NCBI GenBank assembly: GCA_951812285.1
Contig: OX638292.1
Coordinates: 614,774-678,773 of the forward strand
Source: an uncultured Dehalococcoidia bacterium
Lineage (GTDB): Bacteria > Chloroflexota > Dehalococcoidia > Lucifugimonadales > UBA1127
Length of the DNA stretch: 64,000 bases
Direction of reading: 5' to 3'
Part shown: piece by piece, positions 9,925-41,579 of the stretch
How the letters are laid out: each line of letters begins with the position of its first letter
Numbering within the stretch: the stretch's first letter is position 1
The notes under the pieces: generated by a model
Seen by the model: only the letters and a program-made list of their open reading frames with translations
What the model was told of the DNA's origin: nothing
The model's database searches: none
Translations under genes and position numbers: made by a program

Positions 9925-10788
9925 ATGAACCCCGCCGTACTGGCCGTCCTGACCGGCCTGTTCCTCGCCCTTGCCTCCCTCTACATCCGTTGGGGCCTGG
10001 AGCGCGGTACTCCCGGAGCTGCTGTGCTGATCGTCAACCTGATCAGCGCGGTCGTTGCCTGGCCGCTCTACCTGCTCTTCTCCCCTCATTTGGGCATTTC
10101 CAACTGGGCTGTGTTTGCATTCATTGCAGCCGGTGTGACGGGACTCTTTCTGGGCCGGGCGTTGCTGTTTGCCGCCATGCAGAGGATTGGCGTGGCCGTC
10201 TCGACTCCGCTGTACAACGTCCAGGCGCCCCTGTCGGTCATGGGCGGCGTGATCCTGTTCAGCGAAGCAGTCTCACCGCTCATAGGGTTGGGCACCGTGG
10301 CGGCCGTGGGCGGCGCCGGCCTGCTTTGCCTTGGCAAGTTCAGTCTGGGCTTAGAGCAACGGGCCCAACTTCGAGAACTGGCGATTCCCGTAGCCTCTGG
10401 CATTTGCATTGCGGCAGGGTTTGTGCTGCGGAAATGGGGGCTGCTGGAGACCCCCGACATCTACCTTGGCCTTGCCATCATGACGTCGACGGCTTTCATC
10501 ATTTCCCTTGGCTCAGCCGTTGTCCACCGGCAGACGATCCGCTTTCCGACGGGCCGGCCATTGATGATGTTCGTCATTGCGGGGTTCATGACCAACGTGG
10601 CCCACCTCACCAGTCTGGCGGCGCTGCTGCATGGCAATCTTGTGGTGGTCATCCCCCTGCAGAACACGGAAATGCTCTTCGCGCTGCTGCTCTCCCTGGT
10701 GTTCCTGCGCCGGCTCGAGCGGATAACGCTCGCCGTGGTGGCGGGGGCGGCGCTCGTGATGACGGGAGCGGTGCTGGTTAACCTGTGA
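9925..10788 (+). CDS. EamA/DMT-family transporter
   Basis: 287 aa, about 10 TM segments, with the two-repeat architecture typical of EamA. Paralogue of the next gene. Confidence 0.75.
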   Translation: MNPAVLAVLTGLFLALASLYIRWGLERGTPGAAVLIVNLISAVVAWPLYLLFSPHLGISNWAVFAFIAAGVTGLFLGRALLFAAMQRIGVAVSTPLYNVQAPLSVMGGVILFSEAVSPLIGLGTVAAVGGAGLLCLGKFSLGLEQRAQLRELAIPVASGICIAAGFVLRKWGLLETPDIYLGLAIMTSTAFIISLGSAVVHRQTIRFPTGRPLMMFVIAGFMTNVAHLTSLAALLHGNLVVVIPLQNTEMLFALLLSLVFLRRLERITLAVVAGAALVMTGAVLVNL

Positions 10789-10844: not shown

Positions 10845-11720
10845 GTGCCTGTCCGAATGCCTCCCGCACTCCTCGCCGTCGTCGCGGGCATGTTCTTCGC
10901 GCTGGCATCGTTCTTCACCCGGCTGGGCCTCGAGCGGGGGACCACGGACGGGGCGGTGCGAACGGCTGCGGTGGTCGCCGTTGCCGTGTCCTGGCCCCTG
11001 TTCATGCTGCTCGCCCCGTGGACGAGCCTATCAAGCTGGGCGGTGCTCGCCTTCATTGCGGCGGGGTTCTGCGGACCCTTCCTGGGAAGGCTGTTCCTGT
11101 TTACGGGCCTGCAGCGCGTGGGAGTGGCCGTCACCACGCCCATCTACAACGTGCAGGTGCTCTTCACCGCGGTTGCGGGCGTGCTGTTCTTCAGCGAGAC
11201 GCTCACGCCGTTCATCGGCGTCGGGACTGTGGCGATGCTGGTGGGCCTCGCACTGCTGGGCCTCGACGCCTCAGGCGGCAATCGCGACAGGCCGCGGCGC
11301 GCGCTGGACCTGCTGTTTCCGCTGGGCGCCGGGTTCTTCATCGCCATCACGTACGTGTTCCGCAAGTGGGGGCTGCAGATTACGCCCGAGGTGTTCCTCG
11401 GGCTGGCGGTGATGTCGTCGACGGCGCTCCTGACGTCGATGGGCACGGGCGCCCTCAAGGGGCAGGCCCTCACCATTCCGCGCGGCCGCACGCTCGTCAT
11501 GTTCACGATCGGCGGCGTGATGGCGATCACGGCCCATCTCTGCGTCCTCGGCGCGCTGCTGCACGGCGATCTGCTGATCGTGGTGCCCCTGCAGAACATG
11601 GAGCCGCTCTTTGCCGTGGTGCTCTCGAGACTCTTCCTGCGGCGCCTCGAGCTAGTCTCGCCGGCCATCGTCGCGGGCGCGGCGCTGGTGGTGACCGGCG
11701 GCGTGCTCGTCAACCTCTAG
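10845..11720 (+). CDS. EamA/DMT-family transporter (tandem paralogue)
   Basis: 291 aa, collinear similarity to 9925-10788 (for example FALASxxxRxGLERGT, VxTPxYNVQ, LHGxLxxVxPLQNxE). Start is uncertain (GTG 10845 or ATG 10857). Confidence 0.75.
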   Translation: MPVRMPPALLAVVAGMFFALASFFTRLGLERGTTDGAVRTAAVVAVAVSWPLFMLLAPWTSLSSWAVLAFIAAGFCGPFLGRLFLFTGLQRVGVAVTTPIYNVQVLFTAVAGVLFFSETLTPFIGVGTVAMLVGLALLGLDASGGNRDRPRRALDLLFPLGAGFFIAITYVFRKWGLQITPEVFLGLAVMSSTALLTSMGTGALKGQALTIPRGRTLVMFTIGGVMAITAHLCVLGALLHGDLLIVVPLQNMEPLFAVVLSRLFLRRLELVSPAIVAGAALVVTGGVLVNL

Positions 11721-13964: not shown

Positions 13965-16772
13965 TCATCCTGCGAAATACAGCTTGATGAGCTCCATCAC
14001 GGCTTGTTTGTCTATGAGCCCCCTGAAGTAATCGGCCACGGCCTCGATGACCTCGTCGCGTTCAATTGTGCCGTTACCGTTACGGTCGTATGGGCTCATG
14101 GAGGCTTCCGTCACCTCGATGGTCACCATGATGATGGCTCCAAAGCCTGCGCTGTCCGTAGCGGTGAGGTTGACGGTGTACGTGTCCCCCAGGGCGAGGT
14201 CGACCTCCTCCCTGACGCTGATTTGTCCGGTCTCCTCGTCGACGGCAAAGTGCAATGCATCGGTCCCACTCAACGAGTAGGTGATGGCGAGGTCATCCGG
14301 GTGCGTGGCCGTCACTGGGTCGCCGACTGCGGCATTGGGCCGCGCGTTTTCAGAGACGCTACGCGTTGTGCGGAAACCGTCGGCGAACTTGGGCGCGACG
14401 GGTGCTGGGCCAAAGCCACCCCCGCCGCCGCCCGGGGTCGTGGTCGTGGTTGAGGGCGAGGATTCCGAGGGCGGGTCTGTGGACTGGGGCGCTGGCGTGT
14501 AACCCGCCGAGTTGGCCGAGACATCGCTAGAGACCCATGGCCGGGCCTGCTTGATCGCAAGGCTATATGCGCTGGTGATCTTAAACTCAATTTCCATGGC
14601 GAACTGTTCGCCGGATTCCGGCTCGTACAGGCCCTTGAAGTGCCCGTGAATTTCGTACAGGTGTTGCTGCAGCTGCGTCAATTGCCCATTGCTCAAGAGG
14701 CGCACCCCTGGATCCACCTGATTGGAATAGCGAAGAAGGGTGGAGTTGGCGAAGTTGTCCAACAGGACTTCCTCCGGAATAGACAGCGCTTCAGGATTCG
14801 TGACCAAGTCCTCACCAATCTGGCTGTTCAAATAGTAGTAGTCGAACCTGCCTGCGATAGGATCGAAGCTGACGGCGACGCCGTTGACCCTTTCGTCCTG
14901 ATAGCTCGGGTGGACCAGGATTCCCATTGCGGCTGCCATGTGGTCGATGCGGTGAAAGTCACGTTCAACAAAAGCGCGGAAGTTCCACAGACTCGCGTAC
15001 ACCTCCTTGAGTGACTTAGCGAGATCGTCCTCGTCTTCCGATGGCTTTTGGCTCTTGGAGTCGTACAGCCCCGCACCGTTGAAGCCGGGCAGGTCCTCGT
15101 TGTTGGTGCTGGAACGGTAGCGGCGGTTGATCCCCTCCGGGAACCCCTCATTCATGGTCTCGATTGCTGAGATGATCCAGGCAGGCGTGTCCCCATCCTC
15201 AATGTCTTTGCGGAGTTCCTTGAGTTTGGATTTCTGGGTGTCGAAGTCTGTTTGAAAGTCGTAGTCGGCCAACATTTCTCTGATGTCCTCATAAAAGCCG
15301 TTGTGCTTCATGAACTCATCGTAGAAATAAAACGGGATAGCATACCCGTCCGGGACGGTGCCGGCCGGGAAACCGAGCCTCCGAAGCTCCGCTACATTAG
15401 CCGCCTTCACGCCGAACGCGTCCCAGTCGTGGAAGCCGATATCCCCAAGCGGAGTGATGGACGTGACCGAGAGGTCCCGTTGCGGCGTCTGTGCCCTGGC
15501 AGGCCGGGACGACGCATAGTGGTTGTCGACCTCACGCTTGGTGGCCGCCCGCACGGTGTACCCGTCCATTGACACCGTGTAGTAAACGTAGCTGCCTAGA
15601 AGCGCACTTATCGCGGACTTGTCGAGGGCATTGCGGATGAAGGCGTTGGGAACGCTGTCCTGGACGGCGCGGAGGTTGACGTGGGAGAGCGGCGTTTGCT
15701 GCACCGTCGTGATGATGCCCGCAACGCGCGGCAACTCGTTGGGCAGAGCCTCGTAAATAACTACGTCCCGGGGGTTGGGCGAGTCGTCGGGATCCATGGA
15801 CCGCAGCAGCCCGTACCCCTCCGCCTTGTTCATCGGGACATAGTCACTGTCAGAAAAGACGTCATTGTCACGCAGGAGGTTAATCCGGGACGCCTGATAC
15901 AGCGACAAGCCACCATGTGCAAGCCGCAATTGCTCGCGCATATGCAGTGCTAAGTCGTTCTCAAGTAGCGGAATGTTCGCGGCTATAAGCGTGTAGAGGA
16001 GATCATTTACGGAATAGGGTTCCCTGCGGTGAATCCATATGGAGTAGAGTCCTTCATTGCCGTCGGGTGACTGGAGTTCGGGGTGATAGGTGAGCAAACC
16101 GTTGAAGTTGTCGTCCGACGCGCTCTCCTCGACGCCCAGGGCAGCAAGGGCGGTCTCAAAGGTGCCGTGGTACGGGTGCGTATTGGTGTTAATGAAGTAA
16201 ATGCGCGGATTACCGCTGTACAGTCCGTACACAATGAACTTGATGTACCGGCCAGTCTTGGCAAGCTGCACGAATGTGTGTTGGTCGGGGATGGCCACTA
16301 CGCCGTCGCTGAGGGGGACGGCGGCAGCCGAGTTCACAGGGTTCTTGCTCACCGGGTCCGCAAGCTCGGTGATGTCGTCGATGCAGTCACCGTCGACATC
16401 TGCCGGGTGGGAGATGAGGTGCTTCTCCACCCGGTAACGCTCCATGGGAAGCGCCGCCACGTTCTCGGCGAGGGTGGTTGAGCCAGCTGCGCCCCTCTTC
16501 ACCAGGATCGGTATCTCAATTGTGGTGTCCGCATCGATGTCGTGCCGCGCATAGAGGACGAAGTAGTCGGAGGTGGTGGAATCGACCACGATGGGAACGG
16601 CGGAAACCTCAACTGCAGTCGGCGTTGGGTCAAGACCGCCTCCCGGGCACGTCTCATCAGCGGTACCGTCGCCGTCTTGGGCGTACGCGGGAGAGCCAAG
16701 GAACCCGGTTAACGCCCCGGAGAGGAGGAGCAATGCAAGTATTACCAGAATTAGATTACGGGAACTTACCAT
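13965..16772 (-). CDS. Exported multidomain protein: signal peptide, unknown N-terminal region, PEP-utilizer swivel-His-like domain, PPDK_N-type ATP-grasp domain, S/T/P/G linker, cadherin-like domain, dockerin/EF-hand-like tail
   Basis: Start ATG at 16772 gives MVSSRNLILVILALLLLSGALTGFLGSPAYA|QDG. Swivel-like segment: VVIYEALPNELPRVAGIITTVQQTPLSHVNLRAVQDSVPNAFI...SMDGYTV (His codon at 15681-15683). ATP-grasp segment: GVKAANVAELRRLG...YRSSTNNEDLPGFNGAGLYDS...EIEFKITSAYSLAIKQARPW. Cadherin-like segment: AITYSLSGTDALHFAVDEETGQISV...YTVNLTATDSAG. C-terminal tail: DRNGNGTIERDEVIEAV. The gene is visibly lower in GC than its neighbours. Confidence 0.8.
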   Translation of the reverse strand: MVSSRNLILVILALLLLSGALTGFLGSPAYAQDGDGTADETCPGGGLDPTPTAVEVSAVPIVVDSTTSDYFVLYARHDIDADTTIEIPILVKRGAAGSTTLAENVAALPMERYRVEKHLISHPADVDGDCIDDITELADPVSKNPVNSAAAVPLSDGVVAIPDQHTFVQLAKTGRYIKFIVYGLYSGNPRIYFINTNTHPYHGTFETALAALGVEESASDDNFNGLLTYHPELQSPDGNEGLYSIWIHRREPYSVNDLLYTLIAANIPLLENDLALHMREQLRLAHGGLSLYQASRINLLRDNDVFSDSDYVPMNKAEGYGLLRSMDPDDSPNPRDVVIYEALPNELPRVAGIITTVQQTPLSHVNLRAVQDSVPNAFIRNALDKSAISALLGSYVYYTVSMDGYTVRAATKREVDNHYASSRPARAQTPQRDLSVTSITPLGDIGFHDWDAFGVKAANVAELRRLGFPAGTVPDGYAIPFYFYDEFMKHNGFYEDIREMLADYDFQTDFDTQKSKLKELRKDIEDGDTPAWIISAIETMNEGFPEGINRRYRSSTNNEDLPGFNGAGLYDSKSQKPSEDEDDLAKSLKEVYASLWNFRAFVERDFHRIDHMAAAMGILVHPSYQDERVNGVAVSFDPIAGRFDYYYLNSQIGEDLVTNPEALSIPEEVLLDNFANSTLLRYSNQVDPGVRLLSNGQLTQLQQHLYEIHGHFKGLYEPESGEQFAMEIEFKITSAYSLAIKQARPWVSSDVSANSAGYTPAPQSTDPPSESSPSTTTTTPGGGGGGFGPAPVAPKFADGFRTTRSVSENARPNAAVGDPVTATHPDDLAITYSLSGTDALHFAVDEETGQISVREEVDLALGDTYTVNLTATDSAGFGAIIMVTIEVTEASMSPYDRNGNGTIERDEVIEAVADYFRGLIDKQAVMELIKLYFAG

Positions 16773-16823
16773 GAGAATGGTAACTCCATCACACCAACCC
16801 AAGGGAACCACACTCACTAAGCA

Positions 16824-16853
16824 TTTATACCAGTATTAATACATCGATGTAAA
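16824..16853 (-). promoter_or_regulatory. Sigma-70-type promoter for the exported multidomain protein gene
   Basis: Minus strand reads TTTACA-N18-TATAAA. The -10 element lies about 50 nt upstream of the ATG at 16772. Confidence 0.55.
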
Positions 16854-17235
16854 TGTTCTTCCCGTGAGCAACAAAGGCCTTAAGCACTTGCGATGTAAAG
16901 GAGATGGTTATCCCAGGCTGCGGCAGGCTCCGGAACCCGTGGGGGAAATGAGGCCGGAGGGAGCCCAATTCGACGGCCCCGGTAACTCGTCGCCAGCGCC
17001 ATTGGCATTCTCGAGACCCTTGTCTCTTTTTCCCCGCCGTAGAGCTCACCCACCCCGTTGCATCGCAACACCGCAAAGCCCTCTCCAGTCTCAATTTGTC
17101 GAATTCCGTAACCCCGCCGCTACCGAAATTAAACCCAGTTCGTTTCAATAATTAGAGAATCCAGTTACAGGAGTTCGGCAAAATAGGTTGAAAAGAAGAG
17201 CTTGGAAAAGCTTTAAGGCTGAGAGGGAGGAAGAT

Positions 17236-17367
17236 ATGTACGCGTTCAAAGGCGACTACCGACTCAACAGGGTCCGGCCCGTTTTGGCGATCGCGGCGCT
17301 CGGTTGCGCTGCCGCCGCGCTGTTGGCCGTACGGGCCCGGCGACATTGCAGGGACTGGCTCGACTAG
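17236..17367 (+). CDS. Candidate 43-aa single-TM small protein (not in ORF track)
   Basis: ATG preceded by GAGGGAGGAAG. Translation: MYAFKGDYRLNRVRPVLAIAALGCAAAALLAVRARRHCRDWLD. Followed by a 10-bp hairpin at 17412-17435. No homology evidence available. Confidence 0.3.
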   Translation: MYAFKGDYRLNRVRPVLAIAALGCAAAALLAVRARRHCRDWLD

Positions 17368-17737
17368 CCGCTCGACATGGGTGGCTTCAGGAAGCCCACC
17401 TCTCTCCAGTGGCGTCCGCAGCCTGCTGCGGGCGCCAATGGGCTTTCAGGGCCGCAGATGGCGGGAAGGGTTTGCGGGCAAGGGTTTACCGGCCGTCAGA
17501 CCGCCCTACCGAAAGTCTTAGCCTAATGCTGCCAGCACAATTGGCCCAAAAACAACCAAATGTCTTGCAATTCAGATAAGGCCGTGTGGACAATAAATGT
17601 AAGGGGCCTCGACTGAACAGCGGGCAAACAAACTGGAGAACCGGCGCCGGCAACCCACGACGTCACTCTCCGATGCCCGAGTAGATAGGCAACAAGGCGG
17701 TCTCAAGAGGCGTGGCTGTTACAGCCAGGAGATAGAT

Positions 17738-18928
17738 ATGAGAAGTCGGATATTCTTGGCACTCGCAGTTTTGTTGGCGTTGGCAACGTTCGCATTCGCT
17801 GCCTGCGGCGGCGAAGAGGAAGAAGCGCAGGTGACAGAACCCGCTCCGGTAACGGAGCCCGCACCGGCGCCCGAGCCTGAAACCGTCACGGAGCCGGAGC
17901 CGACGGTCGTGATGTCGGGCGGCCTGCAGCTATCCATAGATTGCCTTGACGGCGGCGGGTTGACCGACGTTGAGACGGTCATCTCATGCAACCACCAGGC
18001 GATGGAAGGGTTCACGACCTTCTCGTTTGACGGCACGTTCGACCTGACGGCTGCGTTCCCCGTGCCGGGTGCGCCAGTCGGCGGCGCGTCCATCAAGCTG
18101 AACGGCGGCATGATCAAGCCGGACAGGACCAGCTTTACGCTGACGCTCGGCCCAGAGGGTCAGACGATCGAGACGGGCGGCATCCTCATCGGTGATGACT
18201 TCTACACGCAGGACCCGGCGTCACAGTTGTGGTTGAAGGGCGCGCCGGGGGACGACCAGTCGCTGGCGCCCCTGCAGCTGGTCGGCATGCTGTTCCTGCC
18301 CCAGGACGTCCCCACCACGCTGGATGGCGTCATCGAGCTTGAAGACGGCAGCAAGGCATACGTCCTCCTCTCGGACGAGAGCGACCTCGGCGAGGAGGCC
18401 GCCATGTTCGGCCTCGCGGAGAGCGGGATCACCCGACTCGTCGGCGTGGACGACTTCCTGACGAGGGAGGTCCGCGTCACCGTTGAGGGCACCGACGGCG
18501 AGACCCGTGACCTGTTCTCGGTCCGCTACCACGGGTTCGGCGAGGACCTGAGCATCGAGGCGCCCGAGAGCTTCGTGGAGCTCCCTCCCGACGCGTTCTC
18601 AGGCGGCGGCCCGCAGGAGCCGGCGACGGTGCTGGGGCTCGCGCGCAACGCCGACGGCCACGTGGAGGTGCAGTTCAGCAAGCCCGTATTCGTGGAGGGC
18701 GAGGTGATCCTGTACGTCCTGGAGCCATCGACCGGCGGGTGGGAGCTTCCGCTCCTCAGCGGAAGCGGCACGGCCACGCTCGTCTTCGACGCTGCGCCGG
18801 AGGGCAGTCCTGCGCTGGTGACCGGCGAAAGCGAGATTGCCTGGATCGGATTCGGCATGGACGCGGAAATCCTGGATGCCGACGGCGTACGCGCCAACGA
18901 CCTCTTCGACACCTGGACGTACGAGTAA
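17738..18928 (+). CDS. Hypothetical lipoprotein
   Basis: 396 aa. SD AGGAGA. Signal peptide MRSRIFLALAVLLALATFAFAAC with a lipobox-like FAAC, then an acidic P/E/T-rich linker. No family recognised. Confidence 0.7.
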   Translation: MRSRIFLALAVLLALATFAFAACGGEEEEAQVTEPAPVTEPAPAPEPETVTEPEPTVVMSGGLQLSIDCLDGGGLTDVETVISCNHQAMEGFTTFSFDGTFDLTAAFPVPGAPVGGASIKLNGGMIKPDRTSFTLTLGPEGQTIETGGILIGDDFYTQDPASQLWLKGAPGDDQSLAPLQLVGMLFLPQDVPTTLDGVIELEDGSKAYVLLSDESDLGEEAAMFGLAESGITRLVGVDDFLTREVRVTVEGTDGETRDLFSVRYHGFGEDLSIEAPESFVELPPDAFSGGGPQEPATVLGLARNADGHVEVQFSKPVFVEGEVILYVLEPSTGGWELPLLSGSGTATLVFDAAPEGSPALVTGESEIAWIGFGMDAEILDADGVRANDLFDTWTYE

Positions 18929-25170: not shown

Positions 25171-26952
25171 CTAGACCACCTGCGTGTACATGTCGACCAG
25201 CGCCACGCGGCCCTCGTTGACGACGGCGTCCACTGCGCGGCGGAACGCCGGCTGCAGCTCCTCCGCCCGCTCGATGGGGCCCTCCGCGTAAGCGCCGAAA
25301 GAGCGGGCCAGCCCCGCGAAGTCCACCACAGGGTCGTCGATGTCGATGCCGATGGTGCGCCGCTCCATGGGCCGGCCGCGCACCTGCGCCATCGAGCCCT
25401 GGTGGCCGAGGTCGTTGCCGTACGTGCGGTTGTTGTACATGACGATGAGCAGCGGAATGCGGTGGTGCACGGCCGTCCAGATTGCCGCGGGCGTGAAGAG
25501 CATGTCGCCGTCCGATTGGATGTTGATGGTGAGCCGCCCCTTATCGCGGTTGGCCAGCGCCACGCCGACCGCGTGCGGCAGCCCCTCGCCGAGGCCGCCG
25601 CCCCCGCGCGCGCTCACGTCCTGGTACGGGTGCTTGATGTCCCACAGCCGCTGCACCCACCCGCGCAGGTCGCCGTTGCCGACGACCCAGTCGTAGTCCT
25701 TCACGACGTCCCATAGCTCCTGCGCGATGGTCGAGAGCGCCAGCGGGTGGTCCTCGTAGTGCGCCTGTGCGGTCGACTGGTTCCGTGCCAGCGCCGCCTC
25801 GCTCAACTGCGCGATGCGCTCGCGCCGCGCCGTGATCGCGGCCGCGCTCCCCGCGGCGTCGTCCAGCCGCCGCTGCACCAGGTCGGCGAGCGCCGGCGTT
25901 GCGAGCGACGTGTCTGCCGCGACTGACATGGCCGTCGGGTACAGGCTGCCGTGGTCGTCGGCCCAGCTCTTCACCTGGAGCTGCCGCAGCGAGATGTCGA
26001 TGAGCATGGCGTCCGGGCGAAGGATGTCCTCCGTCTTCCGCGTGGCCCGGTCCAGCCGCGTCAGCTCCTGCTGCAGGTCGTACACGTCCAGCGCGAGGAC
26101 CACGTCGGCCTCGGACAACAGCTCCTCACGGCTCTCGGAGGAGTAGAGGGGGTGGCGAGTCGGGAAGTTGAAGAAGTCGCCGCCGTTGATGACCGGCAGC
26201 GCGAGGCTCTCGGCCAGCCGCAGCAGCCCCTGCGCGGCCTCCTCCGAGCGGCCGAGGAAGTTCGCGAGCACCACAGGTCGCTCCGCCGCCATGAGGGCGC
26301 TTGCCACCTGCTCCAGCGCCGCCGGGTCCGCCTGCATCCGCGTCGGCGCGGGGAATCGCGAGACGTCGGGCAACTGGTACGGCTCGGTCAGCTTCTTCTC
26401 CTGCACGTCGGCGTCAAAGCAGACGTAGACGGGCCCCAGAGGCTCCGATGTGACGAGGTTGTACGCGCGGATGAGCGACTCGACGGAGGCCTCGACGCTG
26501 GAGGGCTGGTCGTCCCACTTCACGAAGTTGCGGACGGCTTCGCCCTGCACGTTGGCCGTGTGGATCCAGTCGATCCACGGCCGACGGTGGTTCGCGTCGA
26601 GGGGGCCCGTCGCGCCGAGCACCAGCACGCCGGATCGCCCCATCCACGCGTTGAACATTGCCATCGACGCGTGCAGCAGCCCGACAATGTCGTGCACGAA
26701 TGCCGCCATCGGCTTGCCCGCCGCGCGCCCGTACCCCTGCGCGAGGGCGACCGCGATCTCCTCGTGGTTGCAGAGGATGAACTCCGGCCACTCGTTGCCG
26801 AGGTGGTTGACCACCGAGTCGTGGATGCCTCGGAATGTGGCCCCCGGGTTCATCGAGACGTACTCGATGCCCAGGGCGCGCAGCGTGTCCACGATGACGT
26901 CCGAGCCGTACTCGGTGGGCGCAAGACCGTTCTGGCGGGGGTCTGATGTCAT
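25171..26952 (-). CDS. Thiamine-diphosphate-dependent enzyme (acetolactate synthase / benzoylformate decarboxylase superfamily)
   Basis: 593 aa. TPP-binding motif SDGDMLFTPAAIWTAVHHRIPLLIVMYNNRTYGN. The N-terminal Pyr domain has the conserved E (NHEEIAVALAQGY). Confidence 0.85.
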   Translation of the reverse strand: MTSDPRQNGLAPTEYGSDVIVDTLRALGIEYVSMNPGATFRGIHDSVVNHLGNEWPEFILCNHEEIAVALAQGYGRAAGKPMAAFVHDIVGLLHASMAMFNAWMGRSGVLVLGATGPLDANHRRPWIDWIHTANVQGEAVRNFVKWDDQPSSVEASVESLIRAYNLVTSEPLGPVYVCFDADVQEKKLTEPYQLPDVSRFPAPTRMQADPAALEQVASALMAAERPVVLANFLGRSEEAAQGLLRLAESLALPVINGGDFFNFPTRHPLYSSESREELLSEADVVLALDVYDLQQELTRLDRATRKTEDILRPDAMLIDISLRQLQVKSWADDHGSLYPTAMSVAADTSLATPALADLVQRRLDDAAGSAAAITARRERIAQLSEAALARNQSTAQAHYEDHPLALSTIAQELWDVVKDYDWVVGNGDLRGWVQRLWDIKHPYQDVSARGGGGLGEGLPHAVGVALANRDKGRLTINIQSDGDMLFTPAAIWTAVHHRIPLLIVMYNNRTYGNDLGHQGSMAQVRGRPMERRTIGIDIDDPVVDFAGLARSFGAYAEGPIERAEELQPAFRRAVDAVVNEGRVALVDMYTQVV

Positions 26953-31147: not shown

Positions 31148-32836
31148 ATGGCAGAGATGAGCGGTGGCGAGGCCTTGACCCAGTCCTTGATTCGAGAGGG
31201 GGTCGAGGTAGTCTTCGGGATTCCCGGCATTCACATGTCCGGCAGCGTCGTCGCCATGCGCGACGATGCGGCGATCGAGCACATCACCACGCGGCATGAG
31301 GGCGGCGCGACAAACATGGCCTATGGCTACGCCCGGGCGTCTGGTAAGCCGGGCGTGGCGTTGGTCGTCCCCGGCGCGGGCGTCTACAACGCCGCCTCAG
31401 GCATGGCGACCGCCTTCGCGCGCTCGACGCCGGTGTTGCTTATAGCCGGGCAGATCTCGCGGCCGCAGATGGGCAAGGACCTGGGCGCGATCCATGAGGT
31501 GTTCAACCAGATGGAGACCCTCGCGCCGGTGACCAAGTGGCGACGGCAGGCCATGCGCCCCCGCGAAATCCCGGCTGCGGTCTCCGAGGCATTCCGGCAG
31601 ATGCGCACCGGACGCCCCCGCCCCGTCTACCTCGAGATGCCGCCGGAAGTGGCCGTCGAGCGCGAGGAAGTGCAGTTGCGCGACCCGTCTCCCGTCTCGC
31701 GCATCGTGCCCAGCCCGGACGACCTTCGGCGCGCGGCGGACATCATCGCCAATTCCAGGCTCCCGTTGATATACGCCGGCGGCGGCGTTATGCAGTCGGG
31801 CGCGGAGGATGTCCTCAGGGAACTTGTGGAAATCACCAACATCCCCGTCATCACGTCGAGCGGCGGCAAGGGAGCGATCCCCGACAACCATCCCCTGACC
31901 TACGGGTCCTGCCTCAGTCCGGCGGCGGAAACGCTCGAGTTGAACCAGCTCCTCGACGTCATGCAGTCGGCCGACTGCATGATCGGCGTCGGAGCGCGCT
32001 TCTCGATCGGCAACCCCGCGGGCGAGGCGTGCACGCTCATTAACATAAATATCGACGACAGGGACCTCACGAGAATTCAGGCCAACACCCTGCCCCTGCA
32101 CGGCGACGCCAAGGCGACGCTTGAGGCGTTGCTTCCCTTCCTCAAGGAGGCGGGCGCAGACAACCGCCCATCACCTGCGGAGGCGGTCGAGGCCGCCCGT
32201 CGCCTCATCGCCTACTACGACATCCGGCAACAGGAGCCGCAGTACGCCGTCCTGGAGACCATCAAGCAGAGCATCCCTGAGGAGACCATAACGGTCTGGG
32301 ACGTCACGCAGTTTGGCTACTACTCCCGTACCCACTACCAGGTGAACCTGCCCGGCACGTACATTGACTCCGGCTTCTCGTTCAATCTCGGGCACGCATT
32401 CCCCACCGCCCTCGGCGCAAAGGTTGGCAGGCCCGACACGCCCGTGGTCTGCTTTACCGGCGACGGCGGCTTCATGTTCAACGCGTCCGAGCTCTCGACG
32501 GCGGTCAAGTACGGCATCAACACCGTGACCGTGGTGTTCCGGGACGACGCCTACGGCAACGTCGCCCGGGACCTAGAGGACTTCTTTGGCGGCTCCTACG
32601 GGACGGACCTGCACAACCCGGACCTGGTCAAGTTCGCCGAGTCCTTTGGCGCGGTTGGACTGCGCACGGAAGACCCCTCGGACCTCGCCACGCTGCTGCC
32701 CGAAGCCCTGGCGCTCAATGCGCCGGTCGTCATCGACGTGCCGGTGGGACACCTGGACCTGCCGCGTTCCAAGTTCATGACGCACCTGCCCAGGGTGGCC
32801 TGGACGCAGCCGCAACAAGGCATGATCGCGTCCTGA
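31148..32836 (+). CDS. Thiamine-diphosphate-dependent enzyme (acetolactate synthase-like)
   Basis: 562 aa. GDGGFMFNASELSTAVKYGINTVTVVFRDDAYGN. N-terminal HEGGATNMAYGYAR. Confidence 0.85.
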   Translation: MAEMSGGEALTQSLIREGVEVVFGIPGIHMSGSVVAMRDDAAIEHITTRHEGGATNMAYGYARASGKPGVALVVPGAGVYNAASGMATAFARSTPVLLIAGQISRPQMGKDLGAIHEVFNQMETLAPVTKWRRQAMRPREIPAAVSEAFRQMRTGRPRPVYLEMPPEVAVEREEVQLRDPSPVSRIVPSPDDLRRAADIIANSRLPLIYAGGGVMQSGAEDVLRELVEITNIPVITSSGGKGAIPDNHPLTYGSCLSPAAETLELNQLLDVMQSADCMIGVGARFSIGNPAGEACTLININIDDRDLTRIQANTLPLHGDAKATLEALLPFLKEAGADNRPSPAEAVEAARRLIAYYDIRQQEPQYAVLETIKQSIPEETITVWDVTQFGYYSRTHYQVNLPGTYIDSGFSFNLGHAFPTALGAKVGRPDTPVVCFTGDGGFMFNASELSTAVKYGINTVTVVFRDDAYGNVARDLEDFFGGSYGTDLHNPDLVKFAESFGAVGLRTEDPSDLATLLPEALALNAPVVIDVPVGHLDLPRSKFMTHLPRVAWTQPQQGMIAS

Positions 32837-39974: not shown

Positions 39975-41579
39975 ATGAAGAACGTTGACCTCATTGCCCG
40001 CTCGTTGGAGGCGGCGGGCGTCAAGTGGGTGTTTGGCGTGCCCAGCGGGCCCGTCCTGCCGCTCATCGACGCGCTCGAGCGCACGTCCGTCAGGTACGTC
40101 CTGACCGCGAGCGAGACCTCGGCCGGCTTTATGGCCAGCGCTGTCGGCAGCCTCACGGGAACGCCGGGCGTCTGCCTCTCGACGCTGGGTCCCGGCGCGA
40201 CCAACATGTCGACGGGCGTCGGCTGCGCGTGGCTCGACTGCGCTCCCCTCATCGCCATCACGTGCAACGTGCCGACACGGTGGCTCGAGCGCCGCATCCA
40301 GATGCGCATCGACCACCACTCCCTCTTCGCGTCAATCACGAAGGCCTCGCTCCCCCTGCGTCACGCAAACGTCGCCGATCGCATGGCCGAGGCGCTCGCC
40401 ATCGCGAAGGCCGAGCCCCCTGGCCCCGTCCACCTCGACCTCCCGGAGGACGTCGGCACCGCCGAGGCCCCTGCGAACGCGGCCGCTGCGCCGAACGGAG
40501 CCACAGTCGAGGCAGCCGCCACGGACGCATCCGCCGCCATCGCCACCGTCGCCGACGCCCTCGCCGCGAGCCGGCGCCCCGTCGTCATGACGGGCCTCGG
40601 CTTCACGCGCACCCGCGCCGCAGACGCGCTCCAGGCCTTCGTCGAGCGGCAGGGCATCCCGTTCATCTCCACCATGCACGGCAAGGGCTGGCTGCCGGAG
40701 AGCCACCCCAACTGGGCGGGCGTGCTTGGCCGAGCGCGGCGCACCAACGTGCAGCGCTTCATCAACGGCGCCGACCTCGTCATCGCTATCGGCTACGACC
40801 CGGTCGAGATCAACTACGAGGAGTGGGTCGGCTCCATCCCCGTGGTCCACGTCGCCAACCAGTCCGCCGACGTCGACGGCAGCGTCGACGTACGTTTCAA
40901 CGAGGCCACAGACATGGACGAGGCCCTCCGCGGTATCGCCGCCCTCGCGCCCGCCGCCAACGACTGGTCTGTCGAGGAGTGGGCCACGCACCGCGCCCAG
41001 CTCGACGCCGATCTGCGCCCCGAGACGGCAACCATGAGCGCCCACCGCGTGCTCGACCACCTGCGAGAGAAGCTCCCCGCCGACGCCATCCTCGTCTACG
41101 ACGTCGGCGCGCACACGCACCAGATCGCGACGCAGTGGCGCACGGACCTGCCCAACACCTGCATCTCGACCAACGGCTGGTCGTCTATGGGCTACGGCAT
41201 CCCCGGCGCCATCGCCGCGAAGCTCGCGCACCCCGAACGCCGCGTCGTCGGCGTCGTCGGCGACGGCTGCTTCCAGATGACCGCCGGAGAGCTCGCCGTC
41301 ATGCGGCGGCTGGAGCTGCCGCTGCCCATCGTCGTCCTCAACGACGGCTGGCTGGCGCTCATCAAGCTCAAGCAGCAGGGCAAGACCTACGGCGTAGACG
41401 GCTCATTCCTCGGCGAGCCGCCCTCGACGCCGCCGGAGTACTTCGGCGTCCCAACCCGCGCCGTCCACGACGAGGCCGGGCTGCAGGCCGCGCTCGACTG
41501 GGGCATGTCGCTCGATGGCCCCTCCGTCATCGAGGCCTACATCGACCCGGACTCTTACGCCCGCACCGTGTATGATTGA
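39975..41579 (+). CDS. Thiamine-diphosphate-dependent enzyme (acetolactate synthase-like), third copy in window
   Basis: 534 aa. GDGCFQMTAGELAVMRRLELPLPIVVLNDG. Starts 8 nt after the hydrolase stop. Confidence 0.85.
   Translation: MKNVDLIARSLEAAGVKWVFGVPSGPVLPLIDALERTSVRYVLTASETSAGFMASAVGSLTGTPGVCLSTLGPGATNMSTGVGCAWLDCAPLIAITCNVPTRWLERRIQMRIDHHSLFASITKASLPLRHANVADRMAEALAIAKAEPPGPVHLDLPEDVGTAEAPANAAAAPNGATVEAAATDASAAIATVADALAASRRPVVMTGLGFTRTRAADALQAFVERQGIPFISTMHGKGWLPESHPNWAGVLGRARRTNVQRFINGADLVIAIGYDPVEINYEEWVGSIPVVHVANQSADVDGSVDVRFNEATDMDEALRGIAALAPAANDWSVEEWATHRAQLDADLRPETATMSAHRVLDHLREKLPADAILVYDVGAHTHQIATQWRTDLPNTCISTNGWSSMGYGIPGAIAAKLAHPERRVVGVVGDGCFQMTAGELAVMRRLELPLPIVVLNDGWLALIKLKQQGKTYGVDGSFLGEPPSTPPEYFGVPTRAVHDEAGLQAALDWGMSLDGPSVIEAYIDPDSYARTVYD

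Follow-up and report, generated by a model that had tools for sequence, protein, structure and literature searches.

A putative exported histidine-swivel dikinase encoded by an uncultured Dehalococcoidia bacterium belongs to a protein family shared across phyla

The 64,000-nucleotide stretch of DNA analysed here ('the window'; uncultured Dehalococcoidia bacterium, GenBank assembly GCA_951812285.1, contig OX638292.1, positions 614,774 to 678,773) contains a minus-strand open reading frame (ORF) that joins the catalytic domains of ATP-driven phosphotransfer enzymes to an export signal and extracellular modules. The ORF spans 13965..16772(-) when read from an ATG, yielding a protein of 935 residues, and 13965..16817(-) when read from an alternative GTG located 45 nt 5′ of it; numbering from the ATG, as we do throughout, turns the His379 of a first-pass annotation of the same DNA into His364. 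From the N- to the C-terminus the order is: signal peptide, a region of ~290 residues that matches no family, His swivel domain, PPDK_N ATP-grasp domain, linker, cadherin repeat and EF-hand-like tail. On balance, and by analogy with characterised dikinases, we consider it probable that the product of this gene is a histidine-swivel dikinase, exported and displayed on the cell surface, which would transfer phosphate either onto an acceptor or to water. The sequence-level finding we regard as solid; the function we infer throughout.

An AlphaFold2 model of the window protein was built on 99 homologues (mean pLDDT, the model's per-residue confidence score, of 80), and a second model restricted to residues 41–445 (pLDDT 88) was used for the fold search of the Protein Data Bank (PDB). 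Residue invariance was scored in 99 close sequences, with a wider check on 27 diverse cores that are 46–76% identical. The features of the gene are as follows.

16680..16772 (-): Sec-type signal peptide, residues 1–31; predicted cut after AYA; pLDDT below 50 for residues 1–40
16413..16625 (-): N-terminal beta-sandwich, residues ~50–120; AlphaFold2 strands at 52–119, pLDDT above 90; conservation 0.80
16329..16412 (-): acidic Ca-binding-like loop DVDGDCIDDITE, residues 121–148; invariant Asp residues
15783..16325 (-): variable alpha/beta domain, candidate acceptor-binding domain, residues ~150–330; pLDDT mostly 70–95; conservation 0.57
15498..15770 (-): putative phosphohistidine swivel domain, residues 335–425; His364 codon at 15681–15683
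14529..15434 (-): ATP-grasp domain (PPDK_N), residues 447–748; Pfam E=3.5e-25
14406..14525 (-): S/T/P/G-rich disordered linker, residues 750–789; pLDDT 31–36
14109..14375 (-): cadherin-type repeat, residues 800–888; PF00028 E=8.3e-9
13968..14096 (-): EF-hand-like loop DRNGNGTIERDE and two helices, residues 893–935; stop codon at 13965–13967

Column conservation is ~0.80 in the beta-sandwich, the acidic loop (0.80–0.82 for these two), the His domain and the ATP-grasp domain, and 0.57 in the alpha/beta domain: the pattern that alignments would be expected to give for a conserved phosphotransfer engine coupled to an acceptor or interaction domain that diversifies. Pfam and NCBIfam searches returned no family that covers the core as a whole.

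The PPDK_N-type ATP-grasp domain, already recognised in the first-pass annotation, is firmly identified: PF01326 (PPDK_N) matches residues 453–748 with E=3.5e-25 over profile positions 4–311 of 328. Foldseek comparison of the whole model with the PDB retrieved, for this domain, phosphoenolpyruvate (PEP) synthase 2ols and rifampin phosphotransferase (RPH) 5hv3 at ~1e-14, as well as 5hv1 and HpeI 9goj, and a PDB sequence search aligned PEP synthases 2ols and 9dae and the RPH ATP-binding domain 5hv6 to the same stretch. The NCBIfam models for PEP synthase (TIGR01418), rifampin phosphotransferase and prodigiosin ligase match only via their N-terminal ATP-grasp parts, with the PEP synthase models covered over their first ~225 positions only and NF041857 over its first ~209 only. 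The TIM barrel, noted earlier as missing, is indeed absent: PF02896 appears in neither the Pfam nor the NCBIfam results.

In RPH, the phosphates of ATP are positioned by Lys22, Arg117 and Thr136, while Glu297 binds Mg (PMC4844700). K456 of the window protein pairs with the GGK-motif Lys of PEP synthase, which corresponds to RPH Lys22, and the RPH stretch that aligns with YRSSTNNEDLPGFNGAGLYDS places R553 opposite Arg117 and S572 opposite Thr136, which makes these two residues the likely equivalents. K456, R553, S572, the RSSTNNEDLP block, E727/E729, Q742, R744 and His364 are all invariant or nearly so in the 99 sequences, as is the E-I-E...Q-A-R-P motif. Conservation of the catalytic residues is thus evident from the alignments, and by analogy with the enzymes above the protein would be catalytically active.

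Upstream of the ATP-grasp domain, the first-pass annotation had placed a PEP-utiliser mobile His domain. In kind this stands, as the segment appears to be a phosphohistidine swivel; the specific assignment does not, as the domain is not of the PF00391 type, lacks the GG pair and, as judged by sequence, appears to be of the type seen in alpha-glucan water dikinase (GWD) and not of the PEP synthase type. PF00391 matches neither the window protein (E≤1) nor any of 17 family His-domain sequences (E≤10), and a profile of the His region found nothing among PDB sequences at E≤10. When the threshold is relaxed, a single plausible Pfam model emerges, PF22973, the GWD phosphohistidine domain (GWD1_pHisD): the window protein itself has no match to it, four of the 17 members do, with a sub-threshold best E of 5.6e-4, and P0304, a more distant full-length member, matches profile positions 48–112 of 115 (E=0.0045, 17 bits).

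The canonical motif of the swivel His domain is T/SxxGGxxxH (PMC12167813). In the window protein it reads T356-V-Q-Q-T-P-L-S-H364, with Q359, T360 and P361 invariant at the place of the canonical glycines; this replacement of GG accounts for the failure of PF00391. The QTPLSHVNLRA block that contains His364 is invariant in the 99 sequences, and its LSHVNLRA portion presumably resembles the plant GWD motif. In the AlphaFold2 model, residues 335–425 form a small alpha/beta fold in which His364 starts helix 364–371. The best PDB fold match for the model of residues 41–445 is rifampin phosphotransferase 5hv2 (109 columns, rmsd, root-mean-square deviation, 3.4 Å, E=6.5e-3, probability 1.0); since the query has no ATP-grasp domain in it and RPH's swivel domain is about that length, we take the match to be to the swivel domain.

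Of the 27 diverse cores, 25 retain the His. Its loss in the remaining two, P0278 and P0301, as well as the frequency with which adhesion modules occur as fusion partners in the family, would suit a non-catalytic adhesin that retains the dikinase fold as a binding scaffold, i.e. a pseudoenzyme. We nevertheless consider such a role highly improbable for the window protein: His364, K456, R553, S572, RSSTNNEDLP and E-I-E...Q-A-R-P do not vary among 99 sequences that horizontal transfer has spread, the His and ATP-grasp domains rank among the most conserved parts of the protein, and catalytic invariance across phyla is not expected of a scaffold. P0278 and P0301 themselves may be pseudoenzymes or His-independent ATPases.

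The order of the two catalytic domains, His before ATP-grasp, had been described at first pass as reversed, a reading that needs correction. Potato GWD1 is arranged as CBM45-1, CBM45-2, central domain, His domain (His992) and C-terminal ATP-binding domain (PMC13553574), His before the ATP-binding domain being normal for GWD and PWD. The two-component dikinases HpeHI, CreHI and PpsAB each consist of an acceptor-plus-His protein and a separate ATP-grasp protein (PMC12167813), and HpeHI and PpsAB mirror the same logic. Given the GWD order and the HpeHI/PpsAB split, the order seen in the window protein is a known arrangement.

The window protein resembles GWD and PWD in the succession of an acceptor-binding region, a phosphohistidine domain and a C-terminal PPDK_N-type ATP-binding domain, in having its His on a short helix and in the expected chemistry, with the beta-phosphate going to His and the gamma-phosphate to water. 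PF22973 is the one plausible Pfam model for the family's His domains, with scores below the cut-off. Unlike GWD and PWD, which are plastidial or cytosolic and belong to plants and algae, the window protein is prokaryotic, predicted to be exported and fitted with adhesion modules, and in place of CBM45, CBM20 or an all-helical central domain it has a beta-sandwich followed by an acidic loop and then an alpha/beta domain. With RPH it shares the ATP-grasp fold, the equivalents of Lys22, Arg117 and Thr136, and the best fold match for residues 41–445. However, RPH runs in the order ATP-grasp, RIF-binding domain, His; no similarity to the RIF-binding domain was detected in the window protein; and RPH-type dikinases are cytoplasmic and carry the canonical T/SxxGGxxxH where the window protein has T356...Q-T-P-L-S-H364. 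HpeH and HpeI offer the same progression from acceptor and His to ATP-grasp. Finally, PEP synthase and PPDK share the PPDK_N ATP-grasp domain (sequence matches to 2ols, 9dae and TIGR01418), but differ in that the window protein's ATP-grasp is not N-terminal, PF00391 (GGxTS/CHAAI/V signature) and the TIM barrel are absent, and the protein is predicted to be exported. The dikinase engine and its GWD-like order are known; the putative acceptor region and the predicted cellular location are new.

As far as sequence and fold comparison reaches, the N-terminal ~290 residues have no counterpart in known dikinases, and they bear no likeness to GWD's CBMs or its all-helical central domain. The first 450 residues of the window protein gave no Pfam match, in keeping with the ~300 residues of unknown sequence and the Ca-binding-like loop described at first pass. 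The loop, DVDGDCIDDITE, is present, and its four aspartates (D125, D127, D129 and D133; DxDxDxxxD) are invariant in the 99 close and 27 diverse sequences; Cys130, the Cys of DVDGDC, is replaced by Gly in some members, the Cenarchaeum copy included. The PDB fold search with residues 41–445 found nothing below E=1e-3, and no match to the GWD central domain 9HA9, which we assume to be in the April 2026 PDB copy that was searched; for the beta-sandwich (residues ~50–120) there was no significant PDB fold match. MccF-like matches for the alpha/beta domain (E 0.02–0.09) and a DRTGG-like fold match for the model of residues 41–445 (MccF-/DRTGG-like E 0.02–0.4) were too weak to be used. The N-terminal region may serve as the acceptor site.

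The extreme N-terminus, MVSSRNLILVILALLLLSGALTGFLGSPAYA followed by Q, can be read directly as a charged, basic n-region, a 16-residue hydrophobic core and an A-x-A before Gln32, and homologues align PAYAQ, PASAQ or PANAQ at the same A-x-A/Q site. A crude hydrophobicity test found a strongly hydrophobic stretch within the first 50 residues in 210 of 252 family proteins. The signal peptide proposed in the first-pass annotation is thus supported as a prediction, both by its n-, h- and c-regions with AYA/Q and by their conservation in homologues. Distant relatives point the same way: three CWB2 cell-wall-binding repeats are found in P0306 and P0315, which are 46–50% identical over the whole core, and P0307, a relative in the same identity range, ends in a type IX secretion system (T9SS) Por_Secre_tail. 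The same core with lineage-specific export or anchor devices suggests that separate lineages added their own. At the level of sequence the export signals are recognisable, and the paradox raised at first pass, predicted export of an ATP-using enzyme, is genuine and holds across the family.

An ordinary cytoplasmic PEP-synthase-like enzyme that owes its signal peptide to a mis-called start codon is barely credible as an explanation. While a GTG start does exist 45 nt upstream, the hydrophobic segment and AYA/Q stay N-terminal from either the GTG or the ATG and are conserved in homologues, which excludes a start-codon artefact as the source of the export signal. Moreover, the TIM-barrel acceptor domain is absent, no ordinary cytoplasmic enzyme was seen among the close homologues, and every fusion partner in the family is either an extracellular module (cadherin, cadherin-like, fn3 or Calx-beta) or a signal for export or anchoring.

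The modules that follow the catalytic core agree for the most part with the first-pass description. The S/T/P/G linker (residues 750–789) has pLDDT below 50. The cadherin-like repeat scores above the PF00028 cut-off at residues 805–887 (E=8.3e-9, 36.2 bits against a cut-off of 28.8), and Foldseek matched it to cadherin-23 and protocadherin with probability 1.0. The tail had been described as dockerin- or EF-hand-like, and only the second label survives: residues 895–913 form a single EF-hand-like loop, DRNGNGTIERDE, with a sub-threshold EF-hand_1 match (E=0.03), and the window protein has no Pfam match to the dockerin profile and lacks the two tandem F-hand repeats. In the AlphaFold2 model the tail contains helices 905–916 and 922–934. 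The same C-terminal tail is found on 44 of 317 family proteins. At one related locus (L029, 3809–4225, minus strand) a stand-alone ORF of 139 residues carries the same EF-hand-like tail (hmmsearch E=6e-18), which makes it conceivable that the tail is a module for sorting or docking that can be moved between proteins.

Clustered at 90% identity, the family to which the window protein belongs amounts to more than 2,215 clusters; at 50% identity, 1,451 representatives reach E≤1e-3 and 386 of these E≤1e-30. A scan of one genome per species yielded at least 569 relatives, and we analysed the 77 best loci, in which the homologues are 54–75% identical to the window protein. The labels of the source metagenome-assembled genomes (MAGs) are Dehalococcoidia and other Chloroflexota, Latescibacterota, Binatia, Acidobacteriota (Terriglobia, Bryobacterales), Acidimicrobiia (Actinomycetota), including Candidatus Poriferisodalis and Aldehydirespiratoraceae, Thermodesulfobacteriota and Cenarchaeum. 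Counted by phylum, copies of 55–75% identity are present in at least seven phyla of bacteria, besides the archaeon. The G+C content of the core is 0.613 ± 0.016 across 72 loci, as compared to 0.51–0.72 in the flanks (r=0.42); the core lies below the G+C of G+C-rich hosts and above that of G+C-poor ones. The window gene follows suit: with a G+C of 0.588 and a third-codon-position G+C (GC3) of 0.74, against 0.65–0.70 and 0.85–0.94 in its neighbours, it is the lowest-G+C 2.8-kb stretch of the 64 kb by sliding G+C. The compositional deviation suspected at first pass is thus substantiated. A core that keeps its own G+C whatever the host genome, in copies that cross phyla, argues for horizontal acquisition, as the first-pass annotation had proposed; the cross-phylum distribution and the compositional autonomy are themselves plain in the sequences compared.

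The Cenarchaeum copy is an apparent case of transfer between bacteria and archaea. The Cenarchaeum sp. core (L051, 6558–13040), 61% identical to the window protein, lies within a repeat-rich protein of 2160 residues, flanked by BspA-like arrays, PKD-like repeats and fn3-like domains as read by eye; these repeats lead us to take it for a surface protein. At 8 of the 77 loci (L036, L012, L042, L043, L047, L070, L037 and L076) two or three cores occur within 18 kb, mostly in tandem and in the same orientation, and, being 62–72% identical to the query, they suggest local expansion of paralogues. The window holds one core copy.

Poriferisodalaceae and Aldehydirespiratoraceae contain sponge-symbiotic clades (PMC11706023), and the taxa in which the family occurs overlap with those known for eukaryote-like proteins (ELPs) of sponge symbionts. 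The window protein and its relatives resemble these surface proteins in their cadherin, fn3 and Calx-beta modules, in their SRCR-bearing neighbours, in the shared host taxa (Poriferisodalaceae, Aldehydirespiratoraceae) and in their spread by horizontal transfer. Unlike ELPs of the cadherin, fn3, SRCR and ankyrin types, which are described as binding or repeat proteins, the window protein possesses a complete ATP-dependent catalytic core. The literature that we searched does not mention an ATP-dependent catalytic core for sponge-symbiont ELPs, and contains no paper on PPDK_N or GWD-like proteins that are exported, be it in sponge symbionts or in other organisms; no source names the proteins of this family. 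A preprint on Omnitrophota giant genes mentions PPDK_N only where a figure legend enumerates domains that were often observed. At locus L078 (1–5610), a protein of 3991 residues with SRCR, cadherin-like, Calx-beta and fn3 domains adjoins the homologue P0016; the scavenger receptor cysteine-rich (SRCR) domain is typical of animal immune receptors.

Family proteins reach 3769 residues, and the position of the core within them varies, with the core sometimes duplicated. Such giant multidomain members, as well as the eukaryote-like neighbours and fusions (SRCR, cadherin, fn3), could also be those of a delivered effector or toxin, secreted to act inside ATP-rich host or competitor cells or in phagosomes, where it would phosphorylate a host molecule and, for example, block digestion of the symbiont. 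Delivery into cells would remove the paradox of ATP supply. We find it doubtful: the window copy has only a Sec signal peptide, with neither a translocation domain nor a dedicated secretion signal; the CWB2 anchors of relatives argue for retention on the surface of the producer; and genes for type III, IV or VI secretion or immunity-like genes are not conserved nearby in the 77 loci.

For the preferred reading, a surface-displayed dikinase, a mechanism can be drawn from the analogy to PEP synthase, GWD and rifampin phosphotransferase. The C-terminal ATP-grasp domain would bind Mg-ATP via Lys456, Arg553, Ser572 and Glu727/729; His364, at the tip of its short helix, would attack the beta-phosphate, upon which AMP and orthophosphate derived from the gamma-phosphate would leave. 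The His domain would then swing to the N-terminal region and hand its phosphate to an acceptor or to water, while the linker, the cadherin repeat and the EF-hand-like tail would keep the enzyme attached to the cell surface or to the host matrix. The donor outside the cell would be ATP. As for the acceptor, the adhesion modules and the GWD precedent make a glycan or another hydroxyl on the host matrix or the cell envelope the natural guess. The gene belongs to a large family with horizontal movement among bacteria and archaea that are apparently associated with sponges.

Several observations weigh against this reading. Extracellular ATP is scarce, and no gene for an ATP-exporting partner is conserved beside the gene in the 77 loci. 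No PF22973 score reaches the cut-off of 27 bits (P0304 has 17), and PF00391 gives no match either. The fold match to RPH is modest (E=6.5e-3), and its placement on the RPH swivel domain is our own reading. P0278 and P0301 have lost the His (LSMPNLRA and LSPSNLRA, respectively) while retaining the RSSTNNED ATP motif. Outside the acidic loop, polar residues conserved in all members are few in the N-terminal region, which lends weak support to a defined acceptor pocket. Finally, the association with sponges is one that we infer from MAG names (Poriferisodalis, Cenarchaeum, Aldehydirespiratoraceae) and not from sample metadata; of these, Cenarchaeum is a sponge symbiont.

Some of these same observations bear on another possibility, namely that the water route, ATP + 2 H2O -> AMP + 2 Pi (orthophosphate) at the symbiont surface, is the real job of the enzyme, which would either remove a purinergic or danger signal of the host without making ADP or harvest phosphate, with the other modules only positioning it. 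GWD transfers the beta-phosphate to His and then to glucan, and passes it to water when glucan is absent (PMC13553574), and ATP pyrophosphatase activity persists in RPH mutants (PMC4844700). In the sponge Ephydatia extracellular ATP is a signal, and both ATP and ADP trigger responses while AMP does not (PMC11883242); a surface enzyme converting ATP to AMP is therefore a live alternative. The low conservation of the alpha/beta domain (0.57), the paucity of invariant polar residues in the N-terminal region and the lack of a conserved partner gene are also compatible with an ATP sink. On the other hand, a three-domain swivel machine would be elaborate for hydrolysing ATP, given that apyrases and nucleotidases exist, and the beta-sandwich and acidic loop match the catalytic domains in conservation (0.80–0.82), which suggests that they are more than a spacer. 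Overall, we judge the sink to be unlikely.

To our knowledge, the histidine-swivel dikinases (PEP synthase, PPDK, GWD, rifampin phosphotransferase and phenol kinases) are all intracellular, ATP-driven enzymes. A family of them with a fully conserved catalytic apparatus that is exported, fused to adhesion modules and swapped between bacterial phyla and archaea of sponges would imply either ATP-dependent phosphorylation in the extracellular space of sponges or tampering of symbionts with purinergic signalling. The surface dikinase reading might even be taken further, to a horizontally shared surface enzyme using extracellular ATP of the host, either to silence purinergic signalling by turning ATP into AMP or to phosphorylate a glycan of the host matrix or of the symbiont surface; in so specific a form the proposal is speculative and rather unlikely. 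If true, the first variant would bypass ADP, a trigger of sponge contractions, and silence purinergic signalling around the symbiont, and the second would let the symbiont cell escape recognition as food; in either case no extracellular histidine-swivel dikinase would have preceded it, and symbiosis factors would gain a new class. The family offers a candidate symbiosis factor that can be cloned and, for enzymology, a new putative acceptor-binding fold.

When ORFs from the 77 related loci were clustered, no flanking family occurred in more than 9 loci, and by this comparison the window gene stands alone, with no conserved neighbour. Around it lie unrelated housekeeping and metabolic genes: FAA hydrolase, dienelactone hydrolase, EamA transporters, Lon, a P-type ATPase and thiamine pyrophosphate (TPP) enzymes. 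Insertion scars and flanking repeats were sought at the gene, with short repeats at chance level as the only result; a promoter and terminator consensus scan gave none above shuffles, and Rfam and tRNA scans found only a distant tRNA-Met.

Upstream of the gene, a gap of ~965 bp (16773–17737) separates it from a divergent gene; the gap contains no convincing ORFs and no sigma-70-like promoter consensus, and has the lowest local G+C of this region, down to 0.50. The divergent ORF, of 396 residues (17738–18928, plus strand), has a lipobox-like N-terminus (…LATFAFAAC) followed by an acidic Pro/Glu/Thr-rich stretch and no Pfam match, and probably encodes an exported protein. Further away, three acetolactate-synthase-like TPP enzymes (TPP_enzyme_N/M/C) are found within 17 kb, at 25171–26952 (-), 31148–32836 (+) and 39975–41579 (+), interspersed with MFS transporters and an amidohydrolase. 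On the other side of the gene, two EamA-family transporter genes stand in tandem at 9925–10788 (+) and 10845–11720 (+).

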